A stretch of DNA of 32,000 bases from Candidatus Syntropharchaeum caldarium (GTDB taxonomy: Archaea > Halobacteriota > Syntropharchaeia > Syntropharchaeales > Syntropharchaeaceae). Of the stretch, positions 3,895 to 22,594 are shown piece by piece (positions within the stretch are counted from its first letter, which is position 1; the number at the start of each line of letters is the position of its first letter). The position numbers and the translations under genes are program-made. The stretch covers positions 240,001-272,000 of the forward strand of contig LYOS01000001.1 of assembly GCA_001766815.1 (NCBI GenBank), written 5' to 3'. The notes under the pieces were generated by a model. That model saw only the letters and a program-made list of their open reading frames with translations. It made no database searches and was not told where the DNA came from.

Positions 3895-5493
3895 ATGAGG
3901 TTCGATCCTGAACGACTCAAACAGTCAGCCTGGCAGGAGGGGAAAGAGTATCTCGATTCTGCAGGGATCAACGATCGGTATCCAAGGCGATCCATGCCAT
4001 CTGGCAGAGTACATCCTGTTTTTGAGACTGTACATCGATTACGTGAGGCGTATCTCAGGCTTGGATTCGAAGAGGTTATGAATCCTGTCATCGTTGAAGA
4101 ACGCGATATCTATCGTCAGTTTGGAAAAGAAGCCCTTGTAGTTCTTGATCGCTGTTTTTACCTGGCAGGTCTACCACACCCAAATATTGGGATCTCTGAT
4201 GAGAAGATCGCTGAGATGCGTGATATACTCGAGAAGGACCTAACCGAGGATGATGTGGAGATCGTGCGCAGGATTTTTCATGCCTACAAAAAAGGTGAAG
4301 TGGAGGGGGACGATCTGGTCTATGAGATCGCATCAAAGATCAATGTTCCTGACTACCGGGTTGTATCAATGCTTGACACGGTCTTTCCAGAGTTTAAAGA
4401 ACTCAAACCCGAGCCAACACGCGAGACACTTCGAAGCCACATGACCTCTGGCTGGTTCATCACGCTAAGAAGTCTCATAGAAAAGCACCCCCTTCCGATC
4501 AATCTATTCTCTGTGGACAGGTGTTTCAGGCGGGAGCAGCGAGAGGATGCGACAAGGCTCAAAACATATTTTTCAGCATCCTGTGTTATGCTCGATGAGG
4601 AGGTTACGATCGATGACGGAAAGATGATCTCAGAAGCACTCCTGAGGCAGTTTGGATTCAGCGATTTCAGGTTCAGACTCGATGAGAAGCGGAGCAAGTA
4701 CTACATCCCTGACACTCAGATAGAGGTCTTTGCACATCACCCAGAGCTTCTCGGATCCTCGACTAAGTATGCAGATGGATGGGTTGAGATTGCAACGTTT
4801 GGCATCTACTCACCAATCGCACTCGCAAACTATGATATTCCATATACCGTGATGAACCTTGGACTTGGGGTTGAGCGGCTGGCAATGATCCTCTACGGTG
4901 CGACCGATCTGAGGGAGTTGACATTTCCACAGTTCTATGCTGATATTAAGCTTTCAGACTTTGATATCGCAAGGATGATCCGTGTCAGGTCAGTTCCTTT
5001 AAGCAGAGAGGGCGAAAAACTTGTGGATGCGATTGTTGGTGTTTGCATAGATAAGGGAAATGAGGAATCGCCCTGTGAGTATCCTGCCTGGGAAGGAAAT
5101 TTCTTTGGTAAGACAAAGACTGTAAAGGTCGTTGTGGTTGAACCAGAGGAGAATACCAGGCTCTGCGGACCTGCTTTCATGAACGAGATCATTGTCCATG
5201 ATGGAAACATCTATGGTATTCCCCGTATTGATAGGTGGAAGAAGATCTTTGATGAAGGTGTTAGCACAGGAATCAGGTTCATAGATGCGTTTGCAGCACA
5301 GGCAGCAGCACAGATCGAGCAGGCCACATTGGCGGGAGAGGAGGAGTGCGAGGTCAGGATCAGGATCGTGAAGACGCATGGTGACATCAACATCGAGATC
5401 GATCCCGTGGCAATGAACTTTTTAACAGGCAGAAAGAAGAAGATCGACCTGCGAGGGCCTGTATTTACCACGGTGAGAAGCTGGGTTCTTTGA
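3895..5493 (+). CDS. sepS: O-phosphoserine--tRNA(Cys) ligase (SepRS)
   Basis: 532 aa, collinear from memory with Archaeoglobus and methanogen SepRS: MRFDP..., VLDRCFYLAGLP.PNIGIS, RSHMTSGWFITL, FSVDRCFRREQREDATRL, KRSKYYIPDTQ.EVFA, NLGLGVERLAMILYG. Confidence 0.9.
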   Translation: MRFDPERLKQSAWQEGKEYLDSAGINDRYPRRSMPSGRVHPVFETVHRLREAYLRLGFEEVMNPVIVEERDIYRQFGKEALVVLDRCFYLAGLPHPNIGISDEKIAEMRDILEKDLTEDDVEIVRRIFHAYKKGEVEGDDLVYEIASKINVPDYRVVSMLDTVFPEFKELKPEPTRETLRSHMTSGWFITLRSLIEKHPLPINLFSVDRCFRREQREDATRLKTYFSASCVMLDEEVTIDDGKMISEALLRQFGFSDFRFRLDEKRSKYYIPDTQIEVFAHHPELLGSSTKYADGWVEIATFGIYSPIALANYDIPYTVMNLGLGVERLAMILYGATDLRELTFPQFYADIKLSDFDIARMIRVRSVPLSREGEKLVDAIVGVCIDKGNEESPCEYPAWEGNFFGKTKTVKVVVVEPEENTRLCGPAFMNEIIVHDGNIYGIPRIDRWKKIFDEGVSTGIRFIDAFAAQAAAQIEQATLAGEEECEVRIRIVKTHGDINIEIDPVAMNFLTGRKKKIDLRGPVFTTVRSWVL

Positions 5494-14284: not shown

Positions 14285-14312
14285 CATGACAAAAACGCCT
14301 GAGGTGAACTGA

Positions 14313-15293
14313 ATGGTTACAATATATTATGATAAGGATGTCACGGTCGATGTGCTTAATGATAAAAGAATTGCAGTCATCGGCTACGGAAGTCAGGGGA
14401 GTGCCCAGGCACAGAACCTGAAGGATAGTGGTTTTGATGTTGTTGTTGGACTCAGGAAAGGTAGATCATGGGATCGGGCAGTGGAAGATGGTATGAAGGT
14501 TATGTCGGTTGCAGAAGCTGCTGCATCGGCCGATATCATCCATATTCTCGTGCCTGATCAGGATCAGCCCGCGGTTTACACAGAGTCCGTACTACCAAAT
14601 CTTAACAAAGGAAACGCACTCGGATTCTCTCATGGATTCAATATCCATTTTGGACAGATAACAGCACCGGAGGGTGTGGATGTCTTCATGGTTGCCCCAA
14701 AGAGTCCTGGGCATCTTGTGAGAAGAATGTACCTGCTTGGGCAGGGAGTACCCGCACTCATCGCTGTATACAAAGACGCTACAGGCAAAGCAAAAGATAT
14801 CGGGCTTGCATTTGCAAAGGGAATAGGATCAACGCGTGCAGGCGTGATCGAGACGACATTTGAGGAGGAGACGGTTACAGACCTATTCGGGGAGCAGGTT
14901 GATCTCTGTGGGGGTGTAACAGCGATGATAAAGGCCGCGTTCGAGATCCTTGTGGAGGCGGGATACCAGCCAGAGATCGCATACTTCGAGGCACTGCATG
15001 AACTCAAGCTGATCGTTGATCTGATACAGGAAGGGGGGCTTTCGAAGATGTGGGACTCGGTATCTGACACGGCAGAATATGGCGGACTCACCAGGGGCGA
15101 TCGTGTGATAAACCGTGATGAGATGTATATGATCCTTGAGGAGATTCAGTCGGGTGTTTTTGCACGGGAGTGGTTGCTTGAGAATCAGGCAAAGCGCCCT
15201 GTTTACAATGCCTTAAGGACGCGCGATAAGAACCATGAGATTGAGAGGGTTGGCGCAAAGCTTCGGGCGATGATGGACTGGCTGGACGAGTGA
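14313..15293 (+). CDS. ilvC: ketol-acid reductoisomerase
   Basis: [20 protein letters not shown]-terminus, [35 protein letters not shown]. Confidence 0.92.
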
Positions 15294-15296
15294 TAA

Positions 15297-16496
15297 GTGA
15301 AGACGATACGGGATCCTCTACACGGCTCTATTGAGCTTGATCCGCTGGTGCTTGAGCTACTTGATACACCAGAGATGCAGCGGCTCAGGCGGATACGGCA
15401 GCTTGGGTTCTCACATCTTGTATATCCAGGTGCAAATCACACGCGATTTGAGCACTCACTTGGTGTCTATCACCTTGCAAAGCGTGTACTCGGTCTCATG
15501 GGTATCGAGGATCCCACTTTTGAAGCTTCAAGCCTCATCCATGATATCGGGCATGCACCGTTCTCACACGTTAGTGAGGAATTGATGCAGCGATATCTGG
15601 GTTATGGACATCAGAAAATCGGTGATATAATTAAGAAAAGTGAGATAGGCGATATTTTATCCCGTAACTCGATAAGCGTTGGTGAGATCCTTAAATATAT
15701 CGATGGTAAGTCGCCGATTGGAAGAATCCTGAGCAGCGAGATTGATATCGATAAGATGGACTACATTCTCAGGGATTCATACTATACAGGCGCAGCATTC
15801 GGTCTTGTTGACTGTGAGCGGTTGATCCGTGTGATTAAGATACATAATGATGAGCCTGTGATCGAGCTTCGGGGGTTGCAGGTTGCTGAGTCGCTGCTTG
15901 TCACGAGATTTCTCATGTACTCTGCAGTCTATCACCACCATGTATCGCGTATCGCAGGATCGATGTTTTTGAAAGGGTTGTTGGATCTCATCGAGTCGGG
16001 CAAGCTCAATGCGCAACAGATGGCAAGGATGGATGAACCTGAGATTGAGATATTTATGCAGGATGCAGGTGGGTATCCTTCATGGATCATCGAGTCGCTG
16101 AAGAATCGGAGGCTATTCAAACGTGCAATCTACACAGGAGTGGAGAGCTTCGAACGAGGTAAGCGGATACTTGATCTTCGTGGAAAAGAACGGCGCCTTG
16201 AGGAAGAGATAGGATCTAAGGCAGGTATTGATCCTGAATACATCATCCTTGACATTCCGAGCCTGCCTGAGATCAGTGAGCAGGATGCAAGGATTCTGAT
16301 GGAAAGGGGGGAGGTTAAATATCTCTTTGAGGTATCAAATATTGTGCGGGTTCTAACAAGTGCTGTATGGGATAAATGGCGGCTTGGGGTTTATACACGA
16401 GAGGAGAACCTGGATGCAGTTGCAAAAGCCGCGAAAGATGTGCTTGGCATCAGTACGGGGATGCGGCAGAATGCACTTGATGTTTATATCGATTGA
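15297..16496 (+). CDS. HD-domain phosphohydrolase (COG1078 / dNTP triphosphohydrolase-like)
   Basis: GTG start 3 nt after the ilvC stop. RLRRIRQLG, NHTRFEHSLGV, HDIGH.PFSH and DKMDYILRDSYYTG motifs. Confidence 0.8.
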   Translation: MKTIRDPLHGSIELDPLVLELLDTPEMQRLRRIRQLGFSHLVYPGANHTRFEHSLGVYHLAKRVLGLMGIEDPTFEASSLIHDIGHAPFSHVSEELMQRYLGYGHQKIGDIIKKSEIGDILSRNSISVGEILKYIDGKSPIGRILSSEIDIDKMDYILRDSYYTGAAFGLVDCERLIRVIKIHNDEPVIELRGLQVAESLLVTRFLMYSAVYHHHVSRIAGSMFLKGLLDLIESGKLNAQQMARMDEPEIEIFMQDAGGYPSWIIESLKNRRLFKRAIYTGVESFERGKRILDLRGKERRLEEEIGSKAGIDPEYIILDIPSLPEISEQDARILMERGEVKYLFEVSNIVRVLTSAVWDKWRLGVYTREENLDAVAKAAKDVLGISTGMRQNALDVYID

Positions 16497-16514
16497 TTTC
16501 TGGAGTGGTGATAC

Positions 16515-17804
16515 TTGAAGATCGATCCATGGGGTTCTGTCAGGATTGAGGATTATTCAAAGCTCTTTGATGAGTTCGGGATAGCGCGGTTTGAGGGAAT
16601 GCTCAGGAAGCTTCCAGATGCCCACAGGCTCATGCGAAGAAAGGTGATATTTGGACATCGTGGTTATGAGATGATCGTGGATGCCATCGTAAGAGGTGAG
16701 CCTTTTGCGGTCATGAGTGGGTTTATGCCCTCCGGTAAGGTCCACCTTGGCGGAAAGATGGTGATGGAGGAGATAATCTACCATCAGCAGATGGGGGGTG
16801 ATGCTTTTGTTGCGATCGCTGATATGGAGGCCCACTCAGTGAGAGGGATTTCATGGCGAGACTGTGAACGGCTCGGGGTTGAAGAGTACATCCTGAGCTT
16901 AATCGCACTTGGATTTAAGCCTGAAGGCCACATCTACTTCCAGTCAAAGTCCAGAACAATCCAGGATCTTCTATTTGAGCTTGGATGTGGGGTCAACTTC
17001 ACAGAACTTTCAGCAATCTATGGTCTAAAGAGTGATACAAAGATCTCACATCTTACGAGTGTTCTTGCACAGAGTGCTGACATCCTGCAGCCCCAGCTTG
17101 AGGAATTTGGAGGTCCAAAGCCGACTGTGATCCCTGTTGGAGCAGATCAGGATCCACACATCAGACTTGCAAGGGATGTGGCAAACAGGATGCGGATGTT
17201 CTTTGTCGAGGCACGGGAGGGTTATATCAGCATCAGGGGGAAAGACATCGATAAAAAGATGCTGGAAAAACTTGAACAGATGTTTGATTGTAAAAGTAAG
17301 TTATATGAGGCGCATCTTGATCTCTACGGAGATTACACGCTCGATGAGGTCGATCGGATCGTTAGAGAGTTTGAGATTAAACTCGGCGGCTATGGCTTCA
17401 TCCCGCCTGCTTCAACCTACCACAGGTTCATGAGCGGGCTTACAGGGGGGAAGATGTCATCAAGTATCCCAGAGAGTTTCATCGCACTCACAGAGCCCCC
17501 TGAGTCTGCAGCCAGGAAAGTCATGCGTGCAAAGACCGGTGGCAGGGTAACACTCAAAGAACAGCAGGAGCTTGGCGGAATCCCTGAGGACTGTTCAGTC
17601 TATGATCTCCTGCTATTCCATCTTGTGGAGGATGATCATGAGGTTGAGGAGATCTACAGAGAATGTGTGAATGGTAAACGAAGCTGCGGCACGTGTAAGA
17701 AGCTTGCAGCAGAGCTTATAACCGGGTTTTTGAAGGATCATCAGGATCGGCGGGAGGATGCAAGGTTGAGATTGAAGGAGTATGAGGTTGTTGGGGTGAT
17801 TTAA
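16515..17804 (+). CDS. trpS: tryptophan--tRNA ligase, archaeal/eukaryal type, with an internal insertion and a C-terminal Cys motif
   Basis: TTG start. DPWG...DY.KL...FG N-terminus, a HIGH-like [29 protein letters not shown]. 429 aa. Confidence 0.85.
17685..17795 (+). repeat. left copy of a 111-bp direct repeat (codons 391-427 of trpS)
   Basis: Aligned by hand to 18681-18791: 106/111 identical, in the same reading frame. The 5 differences are 4 synonymous changes and 1 Glu->Asp. Confidence 0.95.
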
Positions 17805-17921
17805 TTCACCAAATAAGTTCAGCAAAAGCTTTTACAAGTATTCGTTGCTCTGAGAGAAACATTCTACAAAGTGGCTCATTTCCCATCACTTTATAAAACA
17901 CCTGTCAAGTATATGTGATTA

Positions 17922-17929
17922 TTTATATA
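17922..17929 (+). promoter_or_regulatory. TATA-like box (TTTATATA) upstream of the orphan insertion gene
   Basis: Located 24-31 nt upstream of the ATG at 17953, spacing consistent with a leaderless or short-leader archaeal transcript. Confidence 0.3.
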
Positions 17930-17952
17930 CTATACGGGAGATCTTTTACACG

Positions 17953-18660
17953 ATGTCGAGATTTAGACTAAGTAAAAAGCTAACCTCTTATGAAATTACG
18001 TTGAAGCTTTTAAGCAGTATTGAGGATTATTTGCTTACTAAAGTACCTAAAATAATAAATACAAATTCCAATGATATTAAAAAGGAGTATTCTATCTCAA
18101 TTACTGATGATACGGGGACTGAGGAGATTGAAAGCATAAAGGACTATTCTTTATCATCCTTCCCAGACTTTACAGAAAAAATTGATATTTCTTTAACACA
18201 TTATTCTCCAAAGATTTTACAGGTGGACATTGTATTTAGTGATAGACTTTTTTCACGGATTGAAGTGAACTATACAGGAGAAAACGCCAGAGAAATTACG
18301 ATTTCTATCTATGAAGGAATCCTAAGAATTTTGGAATCTTCTAAAACGACTAATTTCAGATACCACCATTCATTTATTGAAACTTCATTATTTGTATCTG
18401 GAGCGTTTCTTTCTGGATTTGCCATATCTAGTTTTAGTACAGGGTCATATGCTGCTGCAGTAACAGCAATAATTCTCCTTTTATTGATTATTCTTTATTT
18501 TGTGGTGGGAAAGAGAATCCATCCCTACACCTTATTTGAGTCACGAAGAGCGGACACTTATAAAAGATGGTGCGATTGGTTCTTCTACAGCGTCCTTGGT
18601 TTCATTCTATTCGATGTTGTGTTAATGGCTATACTAATAAAATTCTATGAGATATCATAA
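17953..18660 (+). CDS. orphan membrane protein (about 140-aa soluble N-domain plus 2-3 C-terminal TM helices)
   Basis: 235-aa ORF in roughly 30% GC DNA. Hydrophobic segments are SLFVSGAFLSGFAISSF, AAAVTAIILLLLIILYFVV and WFFYSVLGFILFDVVLMAILI. No family recognised. Confidence 0.55.
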   Translation: MSRFRLSKKLTSYEITLKLLSSIEDYLLTKVPKIINTNSNDIKKEYSISITDDTGTEEIESIKDYSLSSFPDFTEKIDISLTHYSPKILQVDIVFSDRLFSRIEVNYTGENAREITISIYEGILRILESSKTTNFRYHHSFIETSLFVSGAFLSGFAISSFSTGSYAAAVTAIILLLLIILYFVVGKRIHPYTLFESRRADTYKRWCDWFFYSVLGFILFDVVLMAILIKFYEIS

Positions 18661-18680
18661 TACGTTGTGCAAAAAAGATA

Positions 18681-18791
18681 TGTGGCACCTGTAAGAAGCT
18701 TGCAGCAGAGCTTATAACCGGGTTTTTGAAGGATCATCAGGATCGGCGTGATGATGCCAGGTTGAGATTGAAGGAGTATGAGGTTGTTGGG
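18681..18791 (+). repeat. right copy of the 111-bp direct repeat
   Basis: See the left copy. It begins at the CGTC codons and diverges after ...EYEVVG. Confidence 0.95.
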
Positions 18792-18809
18792 TTGGAAGTT
18801 GAGAGATAG
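18681..18809 (+). pseudogene. displaced, start-less 3' fragment of a trpS gene ([42 protein letters not shown])
   Basis: In-frame TrpRS C-terminus with a different tail (LEVER* versus VI*). The frame is closed by TGA at 18648-18650 and has no start codon. Confidence 0.8.
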
Positions 18810-18950
18810 ATTACGATAGCTGGGTGATATCATAGAATATTTGACGCGTTTATCTAAAACTAATTAACATACAATTTCCATTTTTATTTACTAAATCAGC
18901 AAAGTATATTTATTGAGATCACCAAATTATACAGGGGTATTGGTGAGACA

Positions 18951-20024
18951 ATGGAAAAAGATCGTGAATGTTCTGGCCAGATCAGCATCGACTTTCTCAT
19001 TGGGATATCGCTATTCCTGCTGACGCTCGTATTTCTTGTTCAGTTCATACCGACGGTCTTTGTATCTTTCGGATCAGAATCGATCGACCTCAGTTCGGTT
19101 GCATACAGAACATCCGTGATTCTTGTGGAAGATCCCGGGTGCTGGAACAACTCTGCAACCTTGAGAACTGAATCTGACTGGGAGAACCATGTAGATCGCA
19201 CGACAAGAGTTGGACTTGCAATCGATAAGAACCATCCAAATATCTTAAATTTATCGAAGATTGAGGCGTTTGCAGATACTGTAAATCTTCCTGATTCAAA
19301 CCTGTCCCAAAACCTTGTTCTATACAGGAAAATTGGCGGAAATGATATTTTTTACGGATATAACATAACTTTAACAGATTCTAAGGGTAATCGGTGGAGC
19401 AGAGGAGAAACACTACCTCAGAGCGGAAATCTCGCAAAAGTTGAAAGGTTAACTCTCATCAACACATCTGAGTATGGCTGGATTGATACAGATAAATATT
19501 TTTTAGGAGCCGGTAACCCGTCAAAAGCACTCATAAGAATACCAAATTCAAGTGTTGCGGAGTTCTGCAATGATGATCTCTACTTCTACCTAACAAACTT
19601 CAATATCACAGGAGCAAACCCAAAGTATGTCTCCACTAAGATGGTTCAAACAAACATCAGCAACGAGACAGGAGATAACCTGGTTGATACCGGTAACGGT
19701 ATCCATATCAAATTGGGATCAGGCACGACATTAAACCAACCATCAGATGGATATACGAGACTTAACGGCGTATATCAAGGCGATCTTAATACTAATGTAG
19801 ATATAAACTCTTCTACAGATTTACTTGAGCTTGTGATAAATCAAAGCGCCTTCACAAGAGCGGGCTTTAACATAACAGATCCTGTGTCTGAGGATATATT
19901 CATCGAGTTCAACCTCAACCACATCGAATGTGAAGAAGAGCATTTTCCCTACAACCTGACCTGTTACAACGATACGCTCCAAAATGTTCACAGGATATGC
20001 AATCTGGAGGTGTTGGTGTGGTAA
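18951..20024 (+). CDS. pilin-like secreted glycoprotein with a class III signal peptide (G|QISIDF type)
   Basis: N-terminus MEKDRECSG|QISIDFLIGISLFLLTLVFLV. 14 N-X-S/T sequons counted by hand. RBS GGTGAG upstream. Confidence 0.7.
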   Translation: MEKDRECSGQISIDFLIGISLFLLTLVFLVQFIPTVFVSFGSESIDLSSVAYRTSVILVEDPGCWNNSATLRTESDWENHVDRTTRVGLAIDKNHPNILNLSKIEAFADTVNLPDSNLSQNLVLYRKIGGNDIFYGYNITLTDSKGNRWSRGETLPQSGNLAKVERLTLINTSEYGWIDTDKYFLGAGNPSKALIRIPNSSVAEFCNDDLYFYLTNFNITGANPKYVSTKMVQTNISNETGDNLVDTGNGIHIKLGSGTTLNQPSDGYTRLNGVYQGDLNTNVDINSSTDLLELVINQSAFTRAGFNITDPVSEDIFIEFNLNHIECEEEHFPYNLTCYNDTLQNVHRICNLEVLVW

Positions 20025-20590
20025 GGGGATTTTTAAGCGATGAAAGCGGTCAGCTCCATACGATTGAAGGGCTTGCAGCAGCAGGAATCATGATCGCAAC
20101 CCTCTTTGCGGTGATGGAGGGGGCGGTGATCATAACACCACAGACAGGGCTTGCGCTCGATGCAAACCTGAAGCAGATCGGGGATGACGCACTTGCTGTG
20201 CTTGACGCCTACGATCCTTTTGATGGAATCATACTGAAGCACTATGTTGCAGTCTGGAACAACACAACAAACAATGAGATTATTTATGACACGATTACAT
20301 TTGGAAAAGGTGGCCAGAATGCGCTCAACACGAGTTTGAACAATCTACTTCCAGATGATATCCTGTTCAATGTGGATTTTGTATATGTGAACCATTCCAA
20401 CCAGTCAGATATTACCGTTTGCAGGGTTATAGATAACGGGGAGCCTGGAACCGATGCAGTAGTCTCACGACGCCTCGTCACGCTCTTTGCAAACGAGTCT
20501 GATTATACGCTATCGCCCTACTGGAACTCAACTGTATCTGTAAATGATCCACAGGTTGTGGAGGTGAGGCTGACGCTATGGCAGGTATAA
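19997..20590 (+). CDS. pilin-like protein with a class III signal peptide (SG|QLHTIEG type)
   Basis: N-terminus ...LSDESG|QLHTIEGLAAAGIMIATLFAV. About 7 sequons. The start is ambiguous (ATG 19997 or GTG 20021), and both overlap the upstream gene. Confidence 0.65.
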   Translation: MQSGGVGVVRGFLSDESGQLHTIEGLAAAGIMIATLFAVMEGAVIITPQTGLALDANLKQIGDDALAVLDAYDPFDGIILKHYVAVWNNTTNNEIIYDTITFGKGGQNALNTSLNNLLPDDILFNVDFVYVNHSNQSDITVCRVIDNGEPGTDAVVSRRLVTLFANESDYTLSPYWNSTVSVNDPQVVEVRLTLWQV

Positions 20591-21000
20591 AATCTTTACT
20601 TCGGTCAGATGATGGACAGTGGATCATCATCTCAGGCCTGATCGTTGCAATCGGGCTTATCATCCTATCCGTTCTCCTGAATCAGGCGATGATAAGTGGG
20701 GGAAAAGCATCTGAGGCTGTACTCGACTTTCCAAAAAGTGATATAAGAGAGTTCAGATGGGAGATATATCGGTGGACAAACCAGAATGTGACAAAGATGA
20801 ATGAGGTCGCACAGATCAGAAACCTTACAAATCAGACCAGACTCCTCTATGGTGCAAGGGGAATATCCGTGAACTTCTCGGTGATAGAGATAAATGCAAC
20901 CAATCAGACTGCAAATGTTACGATCTTCATAACCGATGGCACGACCACGTGCAACTACAGACACGAGTTTATCCAGTGTGATGAGATGGGGGAGGGATGA
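20578..21000 (+). CDS. pilin-like protein with a class III signal peptide (DG|QWII type)
   Basis: MAGIKSLLRSDDG|QWIIISGLIVAIGLIILSVLL. 7 sequons in 140 aa. Overlaps the upstream gene by 13 nt. Confidence 0.65.
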   Translation: MAGIKSLLRSDDGQWIIISGLIVAIGLIILSVLLNQAMISGGKASEAVLDFPKSDIREFRWEIYRWTNQNVTKMNEVAQIRNLTNQTRLLYGARGISVNFSVIEINATNQTANVTIFITDGTTTCNYRHEFIQCDEMGEG

Positions 21001-21001
21001 G

Positions 21002-21454
21002 ATGAAGCAAAAAAGCGGGATTATCAACGATGAAGAGGCAGTCTCAACCACGTTGGGGTATCTCTTTATGAGTGGGATAGCGATGATCTTTCTTGCAATC
21101 GTAATGGTGAGTTGCGTAAATATGTTCGTGGATAACCCTGCTAGGGTTGTTATGCGAACCGGGTTTACAGACGTCGGAAATGAGATCAGCACAAAGATAG
21201 TCGATATCTACATCATCTGTCCTGACAATGGAACGCTCACAACAGACCTCACAATGCCAGCAGAGATTGGGGGTGAGCAGTATGAGGTAAATGCAGCCAT
21301 CGGGAGTGGACAGGATCAGATGATCGAAGTTGCAAGCGATGACGGTAAGGTTACAATGAGAATGACGATAAACGGGATCGCTGAGAGTGTTTCTGTGACC
21401 GGAAGTACGATGAGTGGTGAGTGGGAACATCAGATTTATTACAATTCATCTTGA
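21002..21454 (+). CDS. archaeal type IV pilin N-terminal domain protein (EEA|VSTTLGY type)
   Basis: MKQKSGIINDEEAVSTTLGYLFMSGIAMIFLAIVMV resembles the D.RAVSPVIG pilin_N (DUF1628-like) motif. ATG 21002 is preferred over 20936 because GGAGGG lies 6-7 nt upstream and the start abuts the previous stop. Confidence 0.65.
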   Translation: MKQKSGIINDEEAVSTTLGYLFMSGIAMIFLAIVMVSCVNMFVDNPARVVMRTGFTDVGNEISTKIVDIYIICPDNGTLTTDLTMPAEIGGEQYEVNAAIGSGQDQMIEVASDDGKVTMRMTINGIAESVSVTGSTMSGEWEHQIYYNSS

Positions 21455-21467
21455 ATGGGGGTTTTAA

Positions 21468-22235
21468 ATGCGGAAGAAACAAATGATACTGGATGAGGAT
21501 GCAGTTTCAGAGGCGCTTGGTTTCATACTTGTCTTTGCGATCATAACACTTTCGATCGGGATCATCTACGTTGTTGGATACCCTGCGATACAGGATTCGA
21601 AGGATCGTGCGCAGATGAGAAATATGGAGAAGAACTTCATTGTGCTCCAGAGCAGTATCGAGACAGTAGCACTGGGGCAGTCGCCTGTGAAGACGATACG
21701 GATGGGACTTGGTGGCGGGACGATCACCGTGGATGGATCGGGTGGCGCTCTCTCGGTCACAGCCCCGAATATCAGCTACAATGGATATGTGGGAAACATT
21801 ACATACGAGATGGATGGTCGCCAGATCATCTATGAGAATGGCGGCATCTGGTCCAGATACCCATCTGGTGGTTCTGTTGAAATTTCAAGCCCGAAAATCA
21901 GCCTGAGGAAGGATTCCAGTGACTTGAGGTATCTCACGGTCTCAATCATTGAGATAAACAGCTCGATCTCATCTGCAGGTGGGGATGGAATAATAACATT
22001 CACAATTGAAAGCGCGGATCAGACCACATCAGCACCTCAGATCGAAAATACAGCAGGCACAGCATGGATAAATATAACGACCAGCACGCCAGATGCATGG
22101 GCGCGGTACTTCAGAGAACTGAATGATACAGCAGGCGGTGGTGTGAGTGTGACCTCGGGCACGATGACGTGTAACGCCAGCATTCAGTACGACCGTTTCG
22201 TGATGAACAATCACAGCGTGGATGTCAGGGTATAG
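21468..22235 (+). CDS. archaeal type IV pilin N-terminal domain protein (DEDA|VSEALGF type)
   Basis: MRKKQMILDEDAVSEALGFILVFAIITLSIGIIYV. About 7 sequons. Last gene of the five-gene operon. Confidence 0.7.
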   Translation: MRKKQMILDEDAVSEALGFILVFAIITLSIGIIYVVGYPAIQDSKDRAQMRNMEKNFIVLQSSIETVALGQSPVKTIRMGLGGGTITVDGSGGALSVTAPNISYNGYVGNITYEMDGRQIIYENGGIWSRYPSGGSVEISSPKISLRKDSSDLRYLTVSIIEINSSISSAGGDGIITFTIESADQTTSAPQIENTAGTAWINITTSTPDAWARYFRELNDTAGGGVSVTSGTMTCNASIQYDRFVMNNHSVDVRV

Positions 22236-22261
22236 TTACTAACTTGAAGTAATAGTTACTA
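22232..22261. repeat. 10-bp direct repeat ATAGTTACTA x2 (22232-22241 and 22252-22261)
   Basis: Read directly. The first copy contains the TAG stop of the last pilin-like gene. Confidence 0.8.
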
Positions 22262-22446
22262 CCTTAAATTTAGAATATATTTTTTAGGTATTAACTAATA
22301 CTTTTTAGTATATACAATCTTTTAATGTCTTTCTTAGAACTTATTAAAGTTTTAATATTTAGAAATTATAAAAATTCTGAGTGCTTCTTTTTGGAATTAG
22401 AAAAACCTCGACCGATATCCTTAAATAGAATGGTGTGCCATAATAC

Positions 22447-22476
22447 ATTGCACTATTGTGCACATAGGTGTGCAAT
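22447..22476. repeat. inverted repeat ATTGCAC-N16-GTGCAAT enclosing the palindrome TGTGCACA
   Basis: Read directly. Related GGTG(T)GC(C)ACATAAT-like words occur at about 22431 and 22491. Confidence 0.7.
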
Positions 22477-22594
22477 AGCATAAGGTTTTGGGTGCACATA
22501 ATGTCCAGTCCTGCTAATACCCCTCACAAGTCTTTGGACATAAGCTGTTTTCGGCATCCAGAACCTTTCCCCCCTTTGTTTTTGCATTTTGAGA

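Follow-up and report, generated by a model that had tools for sequence, protein, structure and literature searches.

The window analysed here is a stretch of 32,000 nucleotides (nt) from the archaeon Candidatus Syntropharchaeum caldarium, and our subject is an AT-rich insert that sits at the 3' end of its trpS gene. Read from left to right, the locus consists of an ilvC-like gene and an HD-domain gene, an intact trpS, the insert with a single open reading frame (ORF) that we call ORF235, a second and incomplete copy of the trpS 3' end, and a host operon that begins with a DUF7287 gene. Three of the encoded proteins are exact matches to proteins of Ca. Syntrophoarchaeum caldarius that lie on a contig of 492 kb, namely TrpS (OFV68616.1), ORF235 (OFV68617.1) and the DUF7287 protein (OFV68619.1). 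A first-pass annotation, made from the letters of the sequence, had described the locus as a scar of DNA integration.

The two copies of the trpS 3' end

That annotation had aligned 17685-17795 with 18681-18791 without gaps, at 106 of 111 positions and in the same reading frame. Our recomputation returns the same count and extends the direct repeat to 114 nt (17685-17798 versus 18681-18794), still ungapped, with 108 identical positions (95%). Within the 111 nt the copies differ at 17687, 17693, 17753, 17756 and 17762, where the second copy reads T18683, C18689, T18749, T18752 and C18758. All five are third codon positions, and four of the changes are synonymous while one is Glu->Asp, again as first described. 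A sixth difference, at 17796, is the point where the two tails diverge. Inside the repeat there are exact blocks of 59 nt (17694-17752) and 33 nt (17763-17795, with its twin at 18759-18791). A 56-nt exact block occurs twice in the window and in none of 100 dinucleotide-preserving shuffles, and this pair of segments is the sole long direct repeat across the 32 kb.

The intact gene runs through the first copy and ends in a short V-I-stop tail (VI*), which together with the left end of the insert reads GTGATTTAATTCACC. The second copy lies in the trpS frame and ends ..VVGLEVER* (hereafter LEVER*), with its stop codon at 18807-18809. It has no start codon, and a TGA at 18648-18650 closes the frame upstream, so that the reanalysis agrees with the earlier description on each of these features. 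The 95-amino-acid (aa) orphan peptide gave no match in a word-index search.

Two side observations concern the repeat itself. The TrpS protein has a C-x23-C-x6-C-x2-C motif at 17592-17696 (residues 360-394), which looks similar to the Fe-S-cluster motif described in some TrpRS enzymes. The repeat begins exactly at the third Cys codon of this motif, and the orphan fragment keeps only the last CxxC. In addition, an imperfect inverted repeat of 15 nt (87% complementary, 18639-18653 and 18827-18841) flanks the orphan copy, with one arm in the 3' end of ORF235 and the other in host DNA past the LEVER* stop. In AT-rich sequence this is probably a chance match.

Composition and content of the insert

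The DNA between the copies has a G+C content (GC) of 32.7% over 17799-18680, versus 48.8% in trpS and 45.1% in the window as a whole, and is the lowest-GC stretch of 882 bp anywhere in the window (z = -4.8). The contrast described in the first pass is therefore upheld, and its figures (885 bp at about 30% GC against about 50% in trpS) are corrected by these values. The boundaries are sharp, at 17798/17799 on the left and 18680/18681 on the right. A scan of the insert returned ORF235 alone, which bears out the earlier description of a one-gene payload without an integrase, and the gap from the ORF235 stop to the trpS repeat is 20 nt.

We looked for hallmarks of mobile DNA in and around the insert. 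Terminal inverted repeats are lacking (no inverted exact match between the two ends exceeds 3 nt), and the sole insert gene has no recombinase profile or fold match. Pfam scans took in about 30 proteins of the window and found housekeeping functions only, with no mobile-element hallmark among them. There is no tRNA gene in the window, and an Rfam scan of 17400-19100 gave no match. The window also holds no integrase that would suit an integron cassette, a reading for which attC sites were not searched with a dedicated model.

Empty and occupied alleles in relatives

Three contigs from other samples, which we label L085 (ENA, a 30-kb contig), L086 (ENA) and L087 (JGI), show the locus without the insert. 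They are 97-98% identical to the window (L085 98.2% over ilvC-HD-trpS), and in each of them trpS continues directly into the spacer before the DUF7287 gene with a single copy of the repeat. All three are collinear with the window minus exactly 996 bp, that is, one repeat unit plus the insert. Their TrpS proteins end in ..VVGLGV or ..VVGLEVER.

The occupied structure is likewise found outside the window. The ENA scaffold L090, which comes from a different sample and a different assembler and is 3% diverged (97.1% identical), carries trpS, copy 1 with VI*, the entire insert and the first 64 nt of copy 2. The Logan contig L091 (99.4% identical) has the occupied structure, and the Logan contigs L081 and L082 (100% identical) contain the insert and end within the exact repeat blocks, as can be expected of a de Bruijn graph with k = 31. 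The sequencing runs SRR3669912, SRR3679449 and SRR21418560 contain the insert. A further contig, L001 (from MAG 12019_3), shows the left junction only: it runs through VI* and 22 nt into the insert, where the contig stops. Both junctions recur in at least four data sets. Because empty relatives exist and independent assemblies carry the insert, we read it as a true presence/absence polymorphism within a species-level population and not as an assembly artefact. Two outcomes that the first-pass annotation had held to be fatal to its own proposal, relatives without any empty site and an artefact of assembly, are not what we found: L085, L086 and L087 are empty, and L090, L091, L081/L082 and, for the left junction, L001 carry the insert.

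As a separate observation, the last trpS codons (17790-17809 and 18786-18809, with their equivalents in L085 to L087 and in two further contigs, L083 and L084) are hypervariable over a short patch, with ..VVGLEVER*, ..VVGLEV* and ..VVGLGV* as alleles that a few substitutions and a single-G indel set apart. The same end variants are found on empty-site genes and on orphan fragments.

A second type of insert at the same site

The contigs L083 (JGI 3300013103) and L084 (ENA ERZ27227322) hold an orphan trpS fragment of about 250 nt, equivalent to window positions 17546-17798, directly before the DUF7287 gene. The DNA that precedes it is different from the window insert, also AT-rich (33.5% GC), and contains the start of a minus-strand gene; 334 nt of this insert are all that is available. 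Apart from the hypervariable patch at the stop codon, L083 and L084 are one haplotype. Either insertion at the trpS 3' end has happened two or more times, or the window insert is a deletion derivative of a larger one. Residual similarity to trpS to the left of both orphan fragments (RCAKKICGTC; VKKNRGKVTL versus AKTGGRVTL) was considered as well; it is weak and we judged it not significant.

Searches for further copies returned little. A metagenome scan with the 24-nt invariant core brought back the L083 contig alone. Viral contigs gave no match in exact-pattern scans (32-nt core, left end of the insert, right end of the L083 insert) or in protein-guided scans with the TrpS C-terminus and with ORF235. 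In the other archaeal trpS loci that were retrieved, tblastn and blastn found no duplications of the trpS 3' end except for a short repeat in Methanoperedens (L019 and L035).

The Methanoperedens case is of a different build. At L035:9388-10300 and L019:2526-3440, an AT-rich insert of about 740-850 bp lies right after the trpS stop and holds one minus-strand gene (L035 9467-10099, 210 aa, with an N-terminal transmembrane segment). At its start the insert repeats, at 87% identity, 57-61 nt from inside the convergent neighbour gene, which encodes 388 aa. On the surface the case looks like that of the window, but we rejected it as a simple Campbell footprint, as the empty-site contig L004 puts the source of the repeat about 100 nt from the insertion point.

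Polarity of the gene ends and position of the crossover

Two kinds of tail occur at this locus. In occupied strains the intact gene continues after 17795 into VI* and AT-rich DNA, and the orphan copy and the empty-site genes continue into LEVER* or LGV* and the DUF7287 spacer. Since the orphan and the empty-site genes share their tail, we read the VI* end as having come in with the insert and the LEVER* end as the original host end. The first-pass annotation had supposed that an incoming replacement end displaced the original one and had left undecided which tail was ancestral; the LEVER*/LGV* type of tail in L085, L086 and L087 agrees with the first point and makes LEVER* the ancestral end on the second.

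The single-nucleotide differences (SNPs) between the copies narrow down where the exchange may have taken place. At the equivalents of 17753, 17756 and 17762 the letters T, T and C are present in all three orphan fragments (window copy 2, L083 and L084) and in none of the six intact alleles aligned at the nucleotide level, and the Asp that results from them is seen in 0 of 9 intact proteins of the TrpS cluster. The empty site L087 equals window 17694-17795 joined to 18792-18855 with no mismatches, which is the attB predicted for a crossover in 17763-17795; a crossover at the left edge of the repeat adds 3 mismatches. In the DNA past the orphan, the haplotype of the window falls with that of the empty-site L085, apart from L083/L084, so that a breakpoint is found where a Campbell-type model puts it. 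From these comparisons the crossover most likely fell within the 33-nt block.

Intact TrpS proteins of other lineages bear on where the incoming copy came from. The TrpS of Ca. Syntrophoarchaeum sp. GoM_oil (P0181, 84% identity) is intact and ends ..VVGLI, and an intact TrpS from a sister lineage (P0182, 81% identical) has RRDDAR and with it the RRDD feature. The presence of VVGLI and RRDD in intact sister proteins fits an incoming copy that once evolved as a real trpS end elsewhere. Together with the third-position differences, it makes plausible the earlier suggestion that both copies evolved as coding ends.

The cargo gene ORF235

ORF235 is a member of a large uncharacterised membrane-protein family. 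In a word-index search it appeared an orphan, and an exhaustive HMMER search found a family of 437 clusters (counted at 50% identity) at E <= 0.001 and 295 at E <= 1e-10. Most members are about 235 aa long and some reach about 365 aa with an N-terminal extension. Neither ORF235 nor 69 family members had a credible match in Pfam, PHROGs, PADLOC or NCBIfam. An AlphaFold2 model built from 69 sequences has a mean predicted local distance difference test (pLDDT) score of 96.6 and a predicted template-modelling (pTM) score of 0.88, and places an alpha/beta domain at the N-terminus (about residues 1-130) ahead of three long helices at the C-terminus (140-234), which on this model may be read as a membrane anchor. 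A Foldseek search with the model against PDB and BFVD gave no hit at E <= 0.001, with all template-modelling (TM) scores at or below 0.29, and a sequence-profile search of PDB gave no match. Neither did tblastn against phage and plasmid records.

The gene is intact in 4 of 4 alleles seen, and its sequences in the window and in L090 are 2.7% apart, with a ratio of nonsynonymous to synonymous change (dN/dS) of about 0.47, a value that rests on few sites. The TATA-like box listed in Table 1 is probably ORF235's own promoter, judging from what is generally known of archaeal promoters; a second TATA-like motif lies at 17890-17897.

Relatives of ORF235 in unrelated organisms occupy low-GC islets beside housekeeping genes (36-38% versus about 50% GC in L093, 40-45% versus 55-60% in L094), and near these genes we found no integrase and no flanking direct or gene-end repeats. 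In L093 the family gene (1838-2554, 36-38% GC) stands among small genes that follow one another on the same strand and vary in GC. The same contig has a non-coding direct repeat of 110 nt between small genes (81-190 and 1348-1457, 91% identical, spacing 1267 nt), and the region looks like a cassette array or island.

Table 1. Features of the trpS locus and its insert, in window coordinates
Feature	Position	Strand	Evidence
Intact trpS, tryptophanyl-tRNA synthetase, class I, 429 aa (OFV68616.1)	16515..17804	+	PF00579, E = 2.8e-36; exact match to Ca. S. caldarius TrpS
Repeat copy 1 (attL-like), within functional trpS	17685..17798	+	Repeat alignment, shuffle test
Putative crossover region, 33-nt block identical in both copies	17763..17795	+	SNPs on the left, tail divergence on the right
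Last two trpS codons and stop (V-I-stop), probably supplied by the insert	17796-17804	+	Tails compared with empty-site alleles
Foreign insert, 882 bp, 32.7% GC, no terminal inverted repeats	17799..18680	+	Absent from L085, L086 and L087
TATA-like box TTTATATA, 24-31 nt upstream of the ORF235 ATG	17922..17929	+	Motif position
ORF235 (OFV68617.1), single cargo gene	17953..18660	+	No Pfam, PHROG, PADLOC or NCBIfam match; AlphaFold2 model
Repeat copy 2 (attR-like): orphan trpS 3' fragment (18681-18794) and host tail ..LEVER*	18681..18809	+	Tail and downstream DNA identical to L087
Downstream host operon: DUF7287, DUF7288, DUF7261, DUF7266, DUF7289	18951..22235	+	Pfam; adjoins trpS directly in empty-site L085

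Other features of the window

Variation between strains is also seen beyond the insert. Within and just past the DUF7287 gene (18951-20024), the stretch 19280-20049 gives no nucleotide alignment to L085, L083 or L084 except for a 35-nt patch at 19578-19612, and its flanks are 94-98% identical. The stretch is thus a hypervariable segment of the surface or pilin-like DUF7287 protein, which is probably located at the cell surface. On a larger scale, the similarity to L085 (94-98%) ends abruptly at 14287 and at 22577, both edges of the ilvC-HD-trpS-DUF7287..DUF7289 block, and the left breakpoint at 14287 is common to L001. Outside these edges the two sequences carry different genes: on the left a Lon-like protease and a P-type ATPase in the window against AFOR/ferredoxin in L085, and on the right an LPG-synthase-like gene in the window against His_biosynth/DUF2112 in L085. 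The block 14287-22577 is a within-species rearrangement or a transferred block. Further away, at 3895-5493, the window encodes SepRS, the O-phosphoseryl-tRNA synthetase (PF01409 and SepRS_C), which is expected in methanogen-related archaea.

Discussion

Our preferred account, which we consider probable though by no means secure, is that the locus is the scar of a Campbell-type integration of the icd/e14/icdC kind, and that what is left of it would be a decayed or passenger remnant of an integrase-mediated event. Incoming circular DNA would have carried a mimic of the trpS 3' end, about 114 nt long, followed by its own short gene end (V-I-stop). It would have crossed over once with the end of the chromosomal trpS, most likely inside the 33 nt that both copies share, and so left trpS intact and ending in the VI* supplied by the element. 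Next would come the 882 bp of foreign DNA with one gene and its own promoter, then the copy of the homology from the element's side, which would have been joined to the host's original tail LEVER* and left as an orphan fragment, and after it the host DUF7287 operon unchanged. The integration would most likely have been made by an integrative element of the tyrosine-recombinase type, which has since lost all but one cargo gene, unless the unit was always a non-autonomous passenger. The sequences themselves show the repeat, the insert's foreign composition, the empty sites, which gene end is incoming, and the recurrence in independent assemblies; we infer that the intermediate was circular, where the crossover fell and that an integrase took part. 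A single recombination of this kind explains both sharp boundaries, the replacement of the gene end and the orphan fragment, and it is the simplest one-step origin for them. The unit now behaves as a small strain-variable islet.

The closest parallel is e14 and phage 21 in icd of Escherichia coli, where an intact housekeeping gene runs into an element that supplies an alternative 3' end, an orphan C-terminal fragment (the icdC pseudogene in e14) lies at the far end of the element, and the copies differ mostly by synonymous or conservative changes (PMC13626634). The trpS locus has the same three features: an intact target with a 3' end that the element appears to have supplied, a distal orphan, and differences that are mainly synonymous or conservative. 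Excision of e14 recombines both icd copies into a chimeric functional gene (PMC13626634). As a prophage remnant, e14 measures about 15 kb, encodes an integrase of its own and excises on SOS induction. The insert here has 0.9 kb, one gene and no recombinase, and it also differs from e14 in having an archaeal host and trpS as its target.

Among archaea the choice of target is less unusual than the first-pass annotation supposed, and its emphasis on an aminoacyl-tRNA synthetase gene in place of a tRNA gene was overstated given these protein-gene cases and the classical icd/e14/icdC system (PMC6563490, PMC8371274, PMC13626634). In Thaumarchaeota, 14 of 68 elements are integrated in the 3'-distal parts of protein-coding genes, as validated by comparison with empty sites (PMC6563490), and further archaeal integrations into the 3' parts of protein genes have been reviewed (PMC8371274). 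As in those cases, attL/attR-type repeats flank foreign DNA at the 3' end of the gene and a new stop codon is introduced (PMC6563490, PMC8371274); the direct repeats enclose DNA of foreign composition, and relatives have a one-copy empty site. Those archaeal elements comprise several genes, most of them encode an integrase, and their att sites are short, whereas at trpS a single gene without an integrase lies between repeats of 114 nt (about 250 nt in the sister insert). The tycheposon model of Prochlorococcus, in which one site is used repeatedly, as may be the case at trpS, is similar in that there are integrase-less remnants, partial copies of the target and a strain-variable cargo islet (bioRxiv 10.1101/2020.12.28.424599). 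Tycheposons, however, are bacterial, target tRNA genes and have identified integrases, and here we see two types of insert at one protein-gene site. What is particular to the present case is the trpS target, the host lineage, the one-gene size and the long repeat, none of which requires a new mechanism.

Several points weigh against our preferred account. The integrase or recombinase gene that would be expected in or beside an integrative element did not turn up: we found no integrase, excisionase, integrase fragment or transposase in the insert, in the 32-kb window or in any related contig. Scans of viral contigs turned up no trpS-like attP. The repeats of 114 and about 250 nt exceed typical archaeal att sites, which measure 29-69 bp in crenarchaeal elements and are mostly under 26 bp in Thaumarchaeota (PMC6563490). 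The T/T/C letters could mark the displaced allele of a single ancestral host lineage, in which case the crossover would lie to the left of 17753. Finally, the divergence of the insert between strains (the 2.7% in ORF235) is on a par with that of its flanks, so that the insert is not a recent mobile arrival, and it could have spread simply by homologous recombination in the flanks.

The rival that we take most seriously is homologous recombination by the host with no integrase and no integrative element at any time, the incoming DNA being that of a related strain or species in which a piece of trpS lay next to ORF235. We regard it as unlikely on balance, and it has a good deal in its favour. 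The homology is long (114 nt at 95%, and about 250 nt in L083/L084), no integrase turned up in the insert, the window or the related contigs, and the two types of insert differ in repeat length and in adjacent sequence as would be expected of independent homology-driven events. Homologous recombination is also active here, as the strain haplotypes are mosaic around the site, and even the archaeal integrase of pTN3 can act on identical segments of at least 104 bp with an outcome that is homologous recombination (PMC8371274). Against it, the donor must already have paired ORF235 with a trpS 3' end and a stop codon, so that the question of origin is only shifted, and the T/T/C letters together with the likely crossover interval are common to 3 of 3 orphans, which favours a fixed site over random crossovers. 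Of the site-specific integration scar first proposed, then, the insertion at the trpS 3' end stands and the site-specificity is not shown: no integrase was found, and homologous recombination would leave an equivalent footprint.

It is rather improbable, in our judgement, that the 996-bp unit of ORF235 and one repeat is an active non-autonomous cassette that uses its trpS-3'-end mimic of about 114 nt as attP and is moved by an integrase provided in trans from a larger trpS-targeting element of alkane-oxidising archaea, for example one of the L083/L084 type. Such a cassette would account for the presence/absence polymorphism among strains at least 97% identical, for the T/T/C letters in the second type of insert at the same site, and for a cargo gene that has a promoter-like motif and is intact in all alleles. 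Neither a helper element nor an integrase has been seen, however, the divergence of the insert resembles that of its flanks and gives no sign of recent spread, no copy of the unit turned up at another locus or in another host, and the relatives of ORF235 elsewhere are free of flanking gene-end repeats. If this reading were true, the trpS 3' end would be a dedicated hotspot for swapping single defence- or envelope-type genes between strains.

The remaining two explanations can be treated briefly. Direct repeats around the insert would also result if a transposon had inserted and duplicated its target site, or if foreign DNA had later filled a local tandem duplication, but we consider either very improbable. 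Transposases and casposases make short, identical duplications, quite unlike a non-identical repeat of 114 nt at 95%, the insert lacks the terminal inverted repeats and the transposase that a transposon, insertion sequence or casposon would have, and the copy-specific third-position SNPs recur in other orphans and hence are not decay after duplication. That collapsed or chained strain variants of the trpS 3' end produced the structure during assembly is hardly credible: short-read assemblies do break here (L081 and L082 in the exact blocks, L001 28 nt past the repeat), but L090 runs from trpS through copy 1 and the insert into the start of copy 2 on one scaffold, the exact blocks of 59 and 33 nt are shorter than the reads, 6 SNPs tell the copies apart, and the recurrence of both junctions in separate data sets reproduces the structure.

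The insert is a real but fairly ordinary footprint of DNA integration, and it reveals no new mechanism. Its interest lies in a cleanly resolved replacement of a gene end by integration, with occupied and empty alleles, in an uncultured alkane-oxidising (butane-oxidising) archaeon. Mobile elements are essentially undescribed in this lineage, as the full-text matches to 'Syntrophoarchaeum' and 'integrase' have neither term in title or abstract. The comparison of strains marks the trpS 3' end as a strain-variable insertion site that may have been used at least twice. The ORF235 family, with its 437 clusters, a confident model without a known fold, and its low-GC islets, is a reasonable candidate for functional study.

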